Below, one piece after another: positions 25,901-61,900 of a stretch of 64,000 nucleotides of DNA (position 1 is the first letter of the stretch; every line of letters begins with the position of its first letter). Source of the DNA: a plasmid; the NCBI RefSeq assembly GCF_057098645.1, contig NZ_JBXSPU010000002.1; one strand, written 5' to 3'. Position numbers: made by a program.

Positions 25901-28900
25901 TTGATCGCCGTTTGCTGGCGCTGTGTAAAGCAGGTCAAATTAATTATACAACCGGAAAAGGGAGGCTTAAATGAGATGGTGCCATTTTGCCACAAACTTG
26001 AGGAAAAACTCATGACAAGCAATCGCTGCCGTGAAATTAAAACGCCACCAGAGCATATTATTGCGGATTACATTCTTCGCTTTATGAAGAACAATAAAGA
26101 GGCAAAACTCTACGAAGCCATGAGCCGCCTTGAAAGTAAAATCAAACTCTTTGTAGCTGACGGTCATGATGAACTACACATCCGGGCATTGTTAAATCAG
26201 GCCGCACATAGCCATACCAAAGAATCATTGAAACAGGCCTGTGAACGGATTTGTAATTAAATTTTTTGTGTTAAATTCTGTCTGTAGTTGCCTCGCCACA
26301 GGCATCCTGACCGACACTCTGCCACCGAAAGAGGGACGCAATTCTAGTGAAATTTATCCTTATGTTTTTCATTTTAGCCATTCTGATCTGGGGTTTTACA
26401 GGTCTGACTTTTAAAGATGCCATTCTGTTTACATCCGTCGGCCTGAGCATTTCGGTTGTGGCTTTGTCTGCGCTGCTTGTGGTAGCTCTGACATTTGTCA
26501 TGGCTGCAATGTATGCGGCTCATGAACTGGGATCGCTTGGTAAAATGATTATCTCTCAGGTCGTTCTGGTTGGATTCTGGAACCTGATTTTTTCTGTTAT
26601 CCCGGACGGAAAATTAATTTCGTTTTTTGGCGTTAATGTCTGGCAATCTGGTTCATATCTAGTTTACTTCATGACGGTGTTGGTAGCTGTTTTCGCAGCG
26701 TATATCGCGCTCCAGAAGCAGCGATAGTTCTTTTCCTGATGTAGTGCATAAGCCTTCCCTTTCGGAAGGCTTTTTTCTGCCTTTAGCGCGGAGTGTTTTT
26801 AAACTGAGTCCGGCTGCACTCCATTTAAATTTAATTCAGTCCTATCTAATAAATCGCTTATTTTTTTCATTCTGGGTTATTAGCCAGACGAGACAGTTTG
26901 TTATATTTGAATTACATCAACCGAGGGCGAGAAAAATGCAGATTAATAAAGTTATGTCTTTACTTGATATTCTTACCAGCTGGCTCGAAGACAATATTAA
27001 TATGGAGTCTGACCTGTTTTTCGATAACGATGTAGACAATACCACCTCAGAGTCCCTGTATCCCGCTGTGGAAAAAGCTAACGCTGTATTGAGCAAACTG
27101 GCGTCACTGTCGTCAGAGACGATTCAGGCGACGCGTCAGCGTTTGCAGGACGCGGTAGAAGGCAAAGGGGAGGTTTCAACTGCTGACGTCAAAGAGTTGC
27201 TACTGGCCACCCGATATCTGATGCTGACTACGGATGGAGAATAAGTTTATGACCACATTAACATTCGAAATTGCTGGGGTAAAAAAGCTCCTCGAAGAAC
27301 TCCGCTCGGCGGAACGGTTCAATGCAACCATTGAACAGCTTTTTGAACCGTCAAATTACCCCGGCGGTACTCCTCTCAACGAAGAGGGCAAAACAGAAGT
27401 GGAAATGAACCAGACGGGGGGAATTTTCTGGCCATCATCCAAACACATTGACCCGGCCCGCCTGACTCCACAGATCCTTCTGGTAAAAGATCATGGCGTC
27501 TATCTGATTACCAATGCATCTCTGGATGGAACCCCTGTTTCCCGTGATACGGTTGTCTATGCCCGTGGGATGAATCCGTCTGTTGATGATGAATGGTATG
27601 ACGAGGCAGAGGAGGCATTGGGCGGCGATGATAGTTCGGTCTCTATCCCGGTGGCGTGGTTTGAACTCGCTCTTAAAAAGAAATTTAATGCTTTTAGTAT
27701 CAAAGTATCCCCCACAAAAATCACTCTGGTGAATGGATAACCACGGCACAGGCTGGCTATCTCGCTTAAACAGTCCGTCCCTGATCTATTAACAGGGCGG
27801 ACCTTATTTAACACAGGACACTAAAAATGGTTATTGACGCTGAGAATTCGGAAATGCATCAAGTACGTGATTTTATCGCTGCAAACTGGAGCCTGTTTAC
27901 TTCGCACATCCGCGAGAAAAGCATGACTGATGAACAGGCCGAAGAGGAAGCTCAACGCATTTTTGTTGTTGTCGGGGGGGGGAAGAGTAAAGGCATTTGC
28001 CTCGCTCAGGGATTCAGCCAGGTGCTGGATATGCACGTTATTTTCAGGTCTGTCCGCTAATCTGTCAGCCGGACAGCCCTCGTTATAAAAGGAACATTAT
28101 GGCAGACACAAAACGTCCCAGCTCCCCGCTTACACAGGCCCAAATCTATGTGCTACGTCGCCTGGCATCCGGAACGACATGCAAGTTTTTTTGACTTTCC
28201 CGCGCGGAACCCAATTCACTGATTTGTGCCCTGCATAAGAATAACTTGCCGCCGGACATATCGTCGGTGGAAAAGTTACTTTTCTATATTTCGATTGTGT
28301 TCTACAGCATCGTTCTTTTCCTGAGTTCAGGAAGTGACAGGCCATAGGCACCTCGAAAATACTCTCGTCATTGCCTCCCTGATGTGTCTTTTTTCTTGTC
28401 AAAATAGGCCCGTTACCGAAAAAAAATTGGCATCTGATATGGTGTAATGCTGGTGTCATTTCACCCCAGAAGGATAGCTCCTGATGAAATTGTTCTACAG
28501 CAAACCTGTTCGCTTTATCGTCATTATCTGCGTATTTCTCCTCGGCGTTGATAACCTGAGCGATATGTTCGTCGATATCTCCCGACCAGTATTCTACGGC
28601 GGTCTCGCTGCACTCCTGGCCGCTGCCGTCGTTATTGCCCGCGTTGATTACAACAAGAACGCGGAAAAAAAGGCCAGCCAGGTCCAGTAACCTTTATTCA
28701 GCCACCTTACGGTGGCTTCTTTTTTATTAACAAGGACTGACTCATGCATAACCTTGAAATCTCTACCATAGCCATTTTCAGTGCCCAGTATAAAAATATC
28801 GAAGAGGCCGAGAACGCCGGGGCCTTATATTCCGTCGATATCGAATATCCGATGACTCTGAATGACCTGTCGCTGCTGTGTGAATCTGTAGCAAAAGCCG

Positions 28901-58900: not shown

Positions 58901-61900
58901 TAAGTCGGCGAATGAAAAATACCGTCTGGCAGTGTTTACGGATATTACATGCGGCTTTTGCCAGAAATTGCATCAAGATCTTCAATCCTATCTCGACGCC
59001 GGGATCTCAATCAAATTCCTCGCCTTTCCACGTGCAGGTCTCAACTCCGTTGTCGCGGGGAATATGGCAAAAATATGGTGTGCGGCAAAACCTAATGATG
59101 CACTGGATGCCGCAATGAGCCCGACATCAACCATTCCGGAAGGACGGCCTGACGAGGCCTGCCTCGATACCATCAAATCGCATTTCCAGGTAGCTTCAAC
59201 TATTCCGCTTCAGGGTACGCCAACGATGGTAACGCTGTCGGGGAAACCTCAGCTATTCACCGGTTGGATGAGCCCGGAAAATCTGGTGACCCGCATGGGT
59301 GCCGAACAAAAGTGACTTTCCACGACTGCAAGAGGTGTTTATGAAATCTGCAATACTGACAACGTTAATGCTGGTGGCGGTTGGTTCTCAACCCGTCTTT
59401 GCTGCCAAATGCCAGTTCGGGGCCTGCGACGCCGACACTGTGGCCAGCAGTGAGATTCTGGTATCTGCTGCTCAGACAGATAAAGACGCAGTTTTAAAAA
59501 AACTCAATGATGCGACATCCCGCAGCGACGTGATGTCGAAACGGTTTGAGTCGTATCTGAGCAATGACAGGTTAAAGGTGAACACCGACAGTACCAAGAA
59601 AGGCCCTAGCAATGAAATCGCTAAGCCGAGGGATGAGTTGGCGCCGGTAAGGCAGCTGAAAGCCATTCGCCCCGAGCTGGTACAAACACCCATCTTCCAG
59701 CCCATTGTTGCGTTCTATGAACGTCTGGCCTGAGTGCGTCGCTGGGGGTTAGAAGATGTCGCTTTGGCTCAGCATTGTCACCCGGGCAACGGGATTGCCG
59801 GATAAGCGGTATTTAAATGATCCGGTGATCCTCCGTTATTACCAACAAAAGATCCAAAAGGCTCCTTACGCCCTGGTGGGATGGACTCTCTGTTTCATGG
59901 CAACCATTGGTGTGTCGCTGGGACTGGATCTTTCCAACCAGATGTTACTTCTCGTTCTGCTGATATTGATCTTTCTGATGGTGGTGCTCCAGGGGCGGTA
60001 CCAGTTCATGCATCCGGAAAGATGTATCAATGCCAAATTTTACCAAACGGTGCTGGACGATGCGTCAGTCTCAGATATTCAGAAAGCTCAGTTTGAATAT
60101 CTCTTCGTGACCAAAGTGGATGAGCTGACCATCGGTGATCTGTACCGACTCTATGATTTCAACAGAGGAGGCCGGTAAAGACGTGGCATGCAGGTGAGAA
60201 AAGTTAATTTGTGGTTGGTCGTTACAGTGCCGGTCATCAGTTCCAGGGGACCGAGGCGACGTAGTTTCCGGAGCGCAGCGGGGCATCCAGATTCCCGGTC
60301 AAAGCGTCAATCATTGCGGAATACGCCACGCTGTCCGATGGGATCGGCGCATTGCTCTGCATACTGACTTTAAGCACCTGCTGTGCATTTTTTCCCGCAG
60401 GGTAGACTTCCACATCAAGACGACGCCAGAAATGTCTTTGTGATACCGTCTCTGTTCCTACGATCCCACTGACCGGCTTATAGTCATAGTCCGTCTCAGT
60501 TTGCCCGTGCTTATCTTTTCGCGTTGTTTTCTTCTCGATAACATATCCGGTTATTCCCGTCACCGGTAGTTCACTGTATTGCAGATTCTCCTGGGTCTTG
60601 CTGTAACTGAATCTGAGAATATATTCGGGCTGATGGCTGGAAATATTAAACCCCTTACCCGTTAATCCGCTCGCAAACCGGGCTGCAAACATTCGCGACT
60701 GAATACTGTCATCCGGAGCAACAATTTCAAATTTCTTGCTGCCTACCGGGCGGGGCAGTAAATCGTACGCATCAACGTCATTTCCAAAATGATAACCGCA
60801 TCCACATAAGAACGTTGTGGCTGTTAGTAAGAAAAATTGCCGTAACATTCTAAATCCTCCAAAAAGGGTTCTTTAATGAATAATTCCGATTTACCGTGCC
60901 AGTATAATCGAACGCAGGCTGATAACTAACAAGTTGAAATGCGTAAAGGTGGCTATGATTAAATTAAATTATTTAAAACCCGTGGCGTCTGTTTTAATTT
61001 CTGCGGTGATTGCGACGGCTGGCTCTGTGTATATTACGTCGAAATATCTAAAACCCGATGTACCGGGTAACGACGAAATAGGACGAGTGGCTGCTTCCTA
61101 TCTGGTAAAAAATCCCCAGTATCTTCTCGAAGCAGGTAAGGCGCTAGAAAAAGAAAATACTAACGCTTCCCTTGAGCGGATTATCCCCTACGCACCGGCA
61201 CTCTTCGAGACCAAAGAGACACCCAATATCGGACCTGATAATGCGGCCGTCGCTGTTATTGAGTTTTTCGACTACCAGTGTCATTTCTGTATGCAGGTAG
61301 CGCCGGTTGTTGAATCTGTGTTGAGCCAAAGCACTGATGTAAAGTTCTTCTTTAAAGAATTTCCGATCTTCGCTGGCTCAAAACCCGTTTCCGCAATGGG
61401 GGCGGCGACAGGCCTGCATGTGTATCAGACATTCGGTGCGGAAGCGTATCGTAAGTATCACAACAATCTGATGACCAGTGCGTATGTATTCTTCAACAAC
61501 CAGCGTGCGTTTACACTCAATGATTTAGACATGGTTGTGAACAAATCCGGGTTCAACAGCTCATTCGGCGATCGGGAGAAAAGCCGCTATGAGAACGTTA
61601 TCTCCGGAAACATGCAGCTGGGGGAAGCTCTCGGGATTAACGGTACGCCAGGGTTCATTATTATGAACATGCAAAAACCCGACGCTGCAACGACGTCATT
61701 CATCCCGGGCGCTGTTGACGAGGCCACCCTGAAATACGCAATCCAGAAGGCCCGTGGAGGCTAAAGTTACTTTTCCTTCCGAAACTGGCCATGCCGGGTA
61801 ACACCGGCATGAACGTCAGGCTTTGACGACAAGTAACTCATTCCAGCGAGTGGTATACCGTGGGGACAGCATGGCCTGCTTCCCCCGGAAATCCTGATGA

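Follow-up and report, generated by a model that had tools for sequence, protein, structure and literature searches.

What reads a short palindrome that recurs along the backbone of an IncHI plasmid, upstream of genes, inside genes and at gene ends? The question was raised by a stretch of plasmid DNA of 64,000 nucleotides (contig NZ_JBXSPU010000002.1 of assembly GCF_057098645.1; the whole stretch is called the window here), in which the consensus (G)AAAAGT-W-ACTTTT(C), 13-15 bp long, is repeated throughout one part and missing from the other. The part with the repeats, at 24023-64000, was found by megablast to be 100% identical to the reverse complement of positions 137641-97664 of pYPE10-190k-tetX4 (NZ_CP041449.1; IncHI1A, MOBH, MPF_F, 190 kb), and position 24023, where the IncHI segment starts, is the junction with the IncHI1 backbone. 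Our comparison of sequences indicates that the palindrome is very probably a protein-binding site of the IncHI backbone that is under purifying selection, and an orphan ParB-fold protein encoded in the window is the candidate that we favor as its binder.

A palindrome of the IncHI backbone

The exact 13-mer AAAAGTWACTTTT was present eight times in the window (at 28271, 32473, 43309, 48045, 48530, 51608, 57145, and 57227), while the number expected from dinucleotide-preserving shuffles was 0.00 and none of 100 shuffles contained even one copy. With up to one mismatch to AAAAGTNACTTTT allowed, 14 matches were found against 0.18 expected. The 11-bp core AAAGTNACTTT occurred 15 times, always within 24023-64000, with starts at 28272, 32356, 32474, 36890, 41580, 43310, 48046, 48531, 48971, 51609, 57146, 57228, 57506, 59309, and 61763. 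The over-representation noticed in the original prediction was thus reproduced, and the coordinates given there were correct to within 1-2 nt. Among the variant copies that it had listed, those at 57505 and 59308 were real cores with G at the center, whereas the copy near 60199 (AAAAGTTAATTTG) breaks the core. The first 28 kb of the window, described there as free of the motif, indeed contained no core, the best match having two mismatches (at 15327).

On the whole 190-kb plasmid, 24 exact 13-mers and 45 cores were counted, while Markov models of order 1-3 gave expectations of 0.013-0.025 exact 13-mers and 0.28-0.37 cores on the 162-kb backbone. The enrichment of the palindrome is more than 100-fold and restricted to the backbone. 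The core sites, with a mean spacing of 3.6 kb, were spread over Tra1, Tra2, the vicinity of all three replication genes, a Tus-like gene, a methyltransferase gene, and other places, and none lay between 47.7 and 83.5 kb of the plasmid, the stretch with the 28-kb accessory island of insertion sequence (IS) and resistance genes. Chance and base composition were ruled out by the shuffles and the Markov expectations, and no similar density was seen in unrelated DNA, since the core was absent from window 1-24022, the accessory island, 12.6 kb of an IncC plasmid, and 18 kb of the F leading region. The early impression of over-representation held on the complete replicon (45 cores against about 0.3 expected) and in related IncHI-type DNA, where the motif was the top palindrome.

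The shape of the site was obtained from a blind enumeration of palindromes with 5- or 6-nt arms and gaps of 0-6, in which AAAGT-N-ACTTT was the only enriched palindrome on the plasmid. The symmetrized logo read G-A-AAAGT-W-ACTTT-T-C; the center was A or T in 82/90 half-oriented copies, with A and T equally frequent, and position +/-7 was G/C in 46/90. No conservation was found beyond +/-8 of the center in the flank logo of the 45 sites, and homology stopped at 15 bp, which defines a two-fold symmetric site of 13-15 bp rather than part of a longer dispersed repeat. A dispersed repeat family (REP/MITE-like), for which homology of the flanks past the palindrome would have been expected, was ruled out by the random flanks, with no flank homology beyond about +/-7-8 nt. 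An orientation signal (KOPS/Chi-like) was also ruled out because the center base was independent of the direction of the neighboring gene. An extra 7-nt flank, CAACCGG, was common to only 3/45 sites. It was seen as (G)CAACCGG(G/A) directly 5' of the palindrome at window 32344-32367, at 83485 and 144784 of pYPE10, and at 19767 of the IncHI2 locus L006, and the sites of this subset may be composite ones that a second protein also recognizes.

This shape also bears on the reading that a site-specific enzyme (restriction-modification enzyme, methyltransferase, nuclease, or recombinase) acts on the palindrome or that it functions as a single-stranded DNA structure. The core includes GTNAC, methyltransferases of the Dam family and of the C5 type are encoded on the plasmid, and ParB-like genes often adjoin methyltransferase genes. 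However, restriction targets are normally avoided, not enriched 100-fold, and conservation over 13-15 bp with a free center is typical of dimeric helix-turn-helix (HTH) binding and not of enzyme sites of 4-6 bp, while a 6-bp A/T-rich stem with a 1-nt loop would form no stable hairpin. We regard this reading as extremely improbable. Both a plasmid-encoded DNA-binding factor and a site-specific enzyme had been proposed as the reader of the motif; the comparative evidence and a ParB/KorB-fold candidate in the window favor the former, and the latter found no support.

With regard to genes, 23/45 sites lay outside annotated coding sequences (CDS), against 20.6% expected (binomial p=5e-6), and isolated half-sites, used as a control, were intergenic in 26.6% of cases. 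Among the intergenic sites, 17/23 were located 50-350 bp upstream of a start codon, and the remaining ones were in convergent gaps or directly after stop codons. At two gene starts of pYPE10, 14873 (trhU) and 84999 (a thermonuclease gene), the sites begin 14 nt past the start codon and encode K-K-L-L-L of signal-peptide-like N-termini (MKKLKKLLL and MTLLKKLLL), showing that this reading frame can accommodate the motif.

The same blind enumeration ranked AAAGT-N-ACTTT first in all nine related loci, which together with IncHI1 represent 10 IncHI-like lineages and encode ParB-like proteins of 32-66% identity. The counts were 12 cores in 41 kb of IncHI2 (L006), 20 in 41 kb of a Klebsiella plasmid of pNDM-MAR type (IncHI1B; L007), 7 in 21 kb from Yersinia (L010), 5 in 21 kb each from Leclercia (L012) and Lelliottia (L014), 6 in 21 kb of a further IncHI-like locus (L021), and, in metagenomic or assembly contigs, 3 in 21 kb (L016), 2 in 4.2 kb (L017), and 3 in 5.2 kb (L018). 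The motif was invariant in hosts from Escherichia to Yersinia and Klebsiella. Two dense clusters were observed in the pNDM-MAR-type locus (1153-2409 and 19058-19806), one with five sites in a non-coding stretch of 1.3 kb immediately downstream of repA and the other with six in 750 bp upstream of the ParB-like gene.

Five sites of the window could be aligned between IncHI1 and IncHI2, and all of their core positions were identical (50/50) in flanks of 61-79% identity, with the center base interchanging freely among T, A, and G. The sites within traD of IncHI1, IncHI2, and Lelliottia read AAA AGT RAC TTT (K-S-N/D-F) and AAA GTW ACT TTR (K-V-T-L). In these three lineages the serine was always encoded by AGT and the threonine always by ACT, while adjacent synonymous positions varied; in the core region only the center base varied, even with a change from N to D. 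Fixed codons beside varying synonymous positions show a constraint at the level of the DNA.

ParB-fold proteins as candidate binders

The candidate binder is an orphan ParB-fold protein of 402 residues, annotated "DNA-binding protein", whose gene lies at 32579..33784 on the + strand of the window. It contained the Pfam domain HTH_ParB at residues 149-209, a match to TIGR00180, and a match to phrog_1033 "ParB-like partition protein" over residues 19-270 (E=9e-18), and a sequence search of the PDB returned the DNA-binding domains of Caulobacter ParB and Spo0J. In an alignment of 60 homologues, G46-F47-N48-x-R50 (GFNxR) and G99/R102 of "GHCRxRA" were invariant; by sequence these resemble boxes I and II in the N-terminal domain of ParB. 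In the AlphaFold2 model (mean predicted local distance difference test score 82, and >95 for residues 20-250), an alpha/beta domain at the N-terminus and an HTH domain were followed by a disordered linker and a helical domain at the C-terminus. The top Foldseek match of this model in the PDB was RK2 KorB with KorA and operator DNA (8qa9, E=2.7e-8), followed by Myxococcus ParB-CTPgammaS, Bacillus Noc-NBS, and Caulobacter ParB-parS (E ~1e-7 to 1e-8). The family is small, with 249 representatives at E<=1e-3 among 1.84 billion proteins.

The palindrome was present upstream of the 402-residue protein gene in every lineage. In IncHI1, two sites precede it at -218 and -100, and the distances in the other plasmids were about -100 in IncHI2, -120 in the pNDM-MAR type (with six sites in 750 bp), -108 in Yersinia, -88 in Lelliottia, -256 in Leclercia, -109 in L016, and -13 in L021. 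Overall, the starts of ParB-like genes were preceded by a site in 10/10 lineages, at -88 to -130 in seven of them and at -13, -43, and -256 in the rest. In IncHI1, IncHI2, and Lelliottia, a conserved TAnTAT hexamer was followed 12-21 nt later by the proximal site; if this hexamer is the -10 element, the proximal site would be located just downstream of the transcription start. In a scan of 28.0-37.5 kb for consensus promoters and terminators, matches were no more numerous than in shuffles, and the sites could not be placed by it.

Two further ParB relatives are encoded on the plasmid, namely the ParB of Par1 (335 residues, SopB-like) and a paralog of 385 residues that is about 26-31% identical to the 402-residue protein. 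A conserved near-site, AAAAGTACCTTTT, was found about 93 bp upstream of the 385-residue paralog in IncHI1 and IncHI2, and distant relatives of this paralog had perfect sites at -43 (L017) and -130 (L018). The plasmids H50 and H51, which lack the gene of the 402-residue protein, were recent deletion derivatives and cannot discriminate between the paralogs. The 385-residue paralog always stood beside a divergent Dam-family methyltransferase gene (L005 14225-16566; L009 3561-7845; L017; L018), with a DUF4942 gene downstream where the contig was long enough, and other members of the ParB-like family, in L016 and in the IncC locus L015, also adjoined DNA methyltransferase genes.

A ParB-type protein might suggest that the palindromes are centromeres (parS/parC) of the IncHI partition systems Par1 (ParAB) or Par2 (ParMR), and scattered ParB-type palindromes are functional parS in IncC plasmids (PMC10954446). 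Upstream of Par1 parA-parB (pYPE10 186.8-188.6 kb; loci L005 and L002), two arrays of 52-54-bp tandem repeats that include TTTAACCCCCTTAATCGCCAG were observed, one with 6-7 copies and the other with 12, and these arrays look like a sopC-type centromere. Because Par1 has these repeats of its own just upstream of parA, in the usual layout of SopB/P1-type centromeres, its ParB is unlikely to be the binder of the palindrome. In addition, the promoter regions of parA and parM were without a site, and the ParB-like genes with upstream sites (those of the 402- and 385-residue proteins) have no neighboring parA. A centromere role is therefore very improbable, and membership of the ParB-like proteins in a classical ParABS system was likewise rejected, no parA being found beside their genes and the Par1 arrays being separate.

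The reading that we consider somewhat the better bet is that the palindrome serves as the operator or loading site (parS/OB-type) of an orphan ParB-fold, KorB-like protein, either the 402-residue protein, the 385-residue paralog, or both. According to this model, a dimer would contact both AAAAGT arms of each palindrome via its two HTH domains, and the 402-residue protein would repress its own gene through the proximal site. With about 45 sites, the whole backbone could be regulated or organized, promoter-proximal sites acting by direct occlusion. Should it act as a CTP-dependent clamp in the manner of KorB, ParB, and Noc, the protein could be loaded at the palindromes and from there slide to promoters or assemble into higher-order complexes, which would explain why sites occur within genes, at junctions between genes, and in convergent gaps.

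Several observations weigh against this assignment, which relies on the behavior of the ParB family and on the position of the sites, so that the binding itself is a step that we infer. About half of all sites are located in CDS or convergent gaps, where a classical operator role is not obvious. The position corresponding to box III in the IncHI1 402-residue protein reads, by eye, GNSNL instead of ENLQR, which makes its behavior as a CTP clamp uncertain, and the Pfam scan gave HTH_ParB alone, without the KorB domain (PF08535). The site before the ParB-like gene is not unique, since conserved site positions were also found elsewhere (the end of traD and upstream of trhR), and co-occurrence cannot single out the ParB-like proteins because all lineages with the motif carry the rest of the IncHI backbone. 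When distant homologues with an altered upstream palindrome were sought, those down to 32% identity on IncHI-like contigs kept the same motif, and the motif was absent from L019 and L020, which represent more distant homologues on short, GC-rich contigs only; with the motif constant while the protein drops to about 32% identity, no co-variation of protein and site is observable. Finally, the IncC homologue of the 402-residue protein is an orphan "parB-like regulator" and not the IncC ParB whose binding was proven by electrophoretic mobility shift assay (EMSA). The IncHI palindrome was absent from the locus of this homologue (L015, plasmid pC1394); upstream of the orphan gene, at 5850-5940, direct AAAGTGA / AAGTCAC repeats resembling the half-site were seen.

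The binder could also be another protein, either a small regulator encoded on the backbone, a nucleoid-associated protein, or a conserved host factor of enterobacteria, and the backbone does encode dozens of uncharacterized small proteins as well as H-NS-like and Hha-like proteins. The invariance of the motif from Escherichia to Yersinia and Klebsiella would fit either a conserved protein of the host or a plasmid protein that is itself very conserved, and the CAACCGG flank hints at a second factor. Yet H-NS and Hha read no defined palindromes, and we know of no enterobacterial regulator with such a palindrome of 13-15 bp, which counts against a host factor. Moreover, the plasmid encodes two proteins of the very family that reads palindromes of 13-16 bp, each with a site before its own gene. 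Another binder is thus unlikely, and the ParB-fold proteins remain the preferred candidates.

Sites in the window and the transfer genes

In the IncHI part of the window, a block of small + strand open reading frames (ORFs), including hok, DUF957, DUF3085, and DUF905 genes, is followed by Tra1, where the - strand encodes the H operon, from mobI to traD and further genes, and where oriT separates this operon from trhR-trhY and trhF-trhH-trhG on the + strand; accessory transfer genes and umuDC are also present. The first site (28271..28283, AAAAGTTACTTTT, exact) is intergenic among the small ORFs, with the next ORF about 207 bp downstream. Two sites precede the ParB-like gene. The distal one (32355..32367, GAAAGTAACTTTT, core intact), which has the extra flank, lies about 218 bp upstream, and the proximal one (32473..32485, exact, again AAAAGTTACTTTT) lies about 100 bp upstream of the start codon and is matched by an equivalently placed site in plasmids of IncHI2, Lelliottia, Yersinia, and the pNDM-MAR type. 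The fourth site (36889..36901, GAAAGTAACTTTA, core intact) is intergenic and about 169 bp upstream of a + strand ORF.

Within traD (- strand), one site (CAAAGTTACTTTT, 41579..41591) occupies the 3' end, 60 bp upstream of the next gene of the H operon and at a position conserved in IncHI2, Lelliottia, and L021, and a second, exact one (43309..43321) covers the codons K-S-N-F. The exact, intergenic site at 48045..48057, about 190 bp upstream of mobI (H operon, - strand), adjoins the oriT repeats and has a counterpart in IncHI2. The exact site at 48530..48542, about 81 bp upstream of trhR (R operon), is conserved in IncHI2 despite flanks of 65% identity, and the core of the site within trhR (48970..48982, AAAAGTAACTTTG) is conserved there too. 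Further along Tra1, an exact copy directly past the trhF/trhH overlap is situated in the 5' end of trhH (51608..51620). Two exact sites 82 bp apart follow, one in the convergent intergenic gap after trhG (57145..57157) and one abutting the stop codon of a HAD-domain gene on the - strand (57227..57239). A site with G at the center lies within this HAD-domain gene (AAAAGTGACTTTA, 57505..57517), and another (AAAAGTGACTTTC, 59308..59320) overlaps the stop of a thioredoxin-fold gene, 27 bp upstream of the next gene. The last site (61762..61774, TAAAGTTACTTTT) overlaps the stop of a DsbA-family gene in the convergent gap with a Y-family polymerase gene. Thus, seven sites are in or overlap annotated CDS, at 41579 and 43309 (traD), 48970 (trhR), 51608 (trhF/trhH), 57505 (HAD), and 59308 and 61762 (stop codons), so the four reported earlier were too few.

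Since sites stand upstream of both divergent transfer operons, as the original prediction had pointed out, the palindrome might be recognized by TrhR/TrhY, which activate transfer, or by HtdA, which antagonizes them. Sites were found upstream of trhR (81 bp), of the mobI/H operon (about 190 bp), of the trhA/AC operon (about 290 bp), and of trhP (about 190 bp). In an htdA mutant of R27, 139 of 181 expressed genes were derepressed, 106 of them non-tra, so this circuit reaches plasmid-wide, and the operons activated by TrhR/TrhY are F, H, AC, and Z (PMC7366339). No domain was recognized when TrhR, TrhY, and HtdA were scanned, and DNA binding by these proteins is conceivable. However, the region upstream of the F operon (window 49933-50543) had no site even at two mismatches, although this operon is activated by TrhRY, and the upstream regions of Z and htdA/AN had none either, so that two of the four TrhRY-activated operons (F and Z) are without a site, whereas the R operon has a site yet is not regulated by HtdA. 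HtdA has been described as acting on TrhR/TrhY at the protein level. Moreover, the densest clusters, in the pNDM-MAR type, are upstream of ParB-like genes and near replication genes, and many sites are in non-transfer genes. The motif spans the whole IncHI backbone (45 sites/190 kb) and is not tied to the two divergent transfer operons, and recognition by the transfer regulators is quite unlikely compared with binding by a ParB-fold protein.

In the oriT region, between mobI and trhR (window 48119-48291), a 15-bp unit, AAAAGTGACCCTATG, occurs 6-8 times with its orientation alternating, in agreement with the earlier remark that AAAAGT forms the arms of the oriT palindromes. The unit has AAAAGTGAC in common with the half-site and center of the palindrome. 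It is conserved in IncHI2 (L006 37899-37985) and was found nowhere else on the plasmid, and the array is probably bound by the relaxosome (MobI/MobH).

The remainder of the window, 1-24022, is not IncHI and consists of F-like transfer genes interrupted by IS elements, among them a copy of the IS3 family (15718-17027) and ORFs of IS21-like type (21483-23820); the N-terminus of a TraI-like relaxase is encoded on the - strand at 12101-13873, and downstream of it lies a large ORF. The source plasmid looks like a hybrid or cointegrate because this F-like and IS-rich part meets the IncHI1 backbone at 24023.

Related systems and meaning for IncHI plasmids

The nearest parallel is KorB of the IncP-1 plasmids RK2/RP4, which in RK2 has OB sites (PMC11790492). 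Like the IncHI palindrome, OB is a 13-bp palindrome (TTTAGCSGCTAAA in RK2) with many copies around the plasmid, 12 on 60 kb compared with about 45 on 190 kb, and the copies of RK2 form three classes that are promoter-proximal, distal, or far from any promoter. KorB shares the ParB fold of the 402-residue protein, of whose model it is the best structural match, and in both cases the operon of the regulator (in IncHI, the candidate) carries a site. In contrast, the korB gene adjoins that of its ParA partner IncC, and KorB works with KorA and TrbA, whereas the IncHI proteins are orphans without an adjacent parA. The site sequences are unrelated, the IncHI protein is without the Pfam KorB domain, and binding, CTP dependence, and repression in IncHI are predicted by analogy.

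The ParB of parAB053 in IncA/IncC plasmids binds 12-14 scattered palindromic parS, of which four lie within ORFs and one at the promoter of par, as proven by EMSA (PMC10954446). These are, like IncHI, large MOBH/MPF_F resistance plasmids, with a palindrome scattered on the backbone, mostly intergenic and sometimes in ORFs, a copy upstream of the binder gene, and a binder of the ParB family (in IncHI, a candidate). The IncC site differs in being a 22-bp inverted repeat with the core TTTCACATGTGAAA, unlike the 13-15 bp of IncHI, the IncC DNA examined contained no AAAGTNACTTT, and the IncC binder belongs to the ParA-ParB-053 partition operon and has a KorB domain, while the 402-residue protein has neither. 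By analogy, the IncHI case may work like KorB or the IncC ParB, differing in the orphan pair of paralogs, the sequence of the site, and the number of sites.

Resemblances to other ParB-like proteins were also found. Noc of Bacillus subtilis is an orphan ParB paralog without a ParA partner, and its site NBS is a short palindrome with dozens of dispersed copies, some in genes; Noc-NBS was among the top fold matches. Unlike the plasmid protein, Noc is chromosomal and tethers DNA to the membrane for control of the division site. HerB (YfjB) of plasmid F is ParB-like, has no ParA partner, and is encoded among hok/DUF905-type genes near oriT, and the gene neighborhood in IncHI1 resembles this F leading region. 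HerB is a ParB-like CTP clamp that bound about 156 regions of the host chromosome without a consensus motif and without enrichment of F (PMC13370423), unlike the sharp palindrome confined to the plasmid in IncHI, and membership of the 402-residue protein in the HerB/YfjB family was rejected after BLASTP against F YfjB gave no meaningful alignment (E=2.7). BisD of ICEclc (PMC12409273), judged from its description, is a ParB-like CTP clamp of a mobile element, an activator in a Pseudomonas integrative and conjugative element that serves long-distance gene regulation and not segregation, and it is likened to the IncHI candidate by that description only.

The palindrome had not been recognized as a described element in the original prediction, and neither the motif nor a KorB-like system was found for IncHI in the searchable literature, older subscription work on R27 and R478 being beyond that search; a full-text search with the exact motif gave unrelated matches only. 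The motif provides a simple sequence marker of IncHI-type backbones and, by analogy with SGI1 and IncC parS, could be exploited by parasitic elements or as a destabilizing decoy.

A broader form of the ParB-fold model, which we hold to be rather doubtful, is a plasmid-wide "chromatin" system in which the two orphan ParB-CTPase paralogs load at the approximately 45 sites and coat or silence the 150-kb backbone. If true, such a system could aid establishment in new hosts, for example, through early post-transfer expression of the paralog in the hok/DUF905 neighborhood, and could shield the circle from SMC-type anti-plasmid systems, and the half-site-bearing oriT repeats would tie it to the relaxosome.

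In typhoid Salmonella, multidrug resistance is spread by IncHI plasmids, which are also carriers of mcr-1, tet(X4), and NDM genes in Enterobacterales. What is known of their regulation concerns mainly H-NS/Hha and the TrhR/TrhY-HtdA circuit. If true, a KorB-like network of some 45 conserved sites would add a global layer of control or DNA organization, and one 13-bp site with two candidate proteins would then bear on plasmid cost, stability, thermoregulated transfer, and incompatibility.

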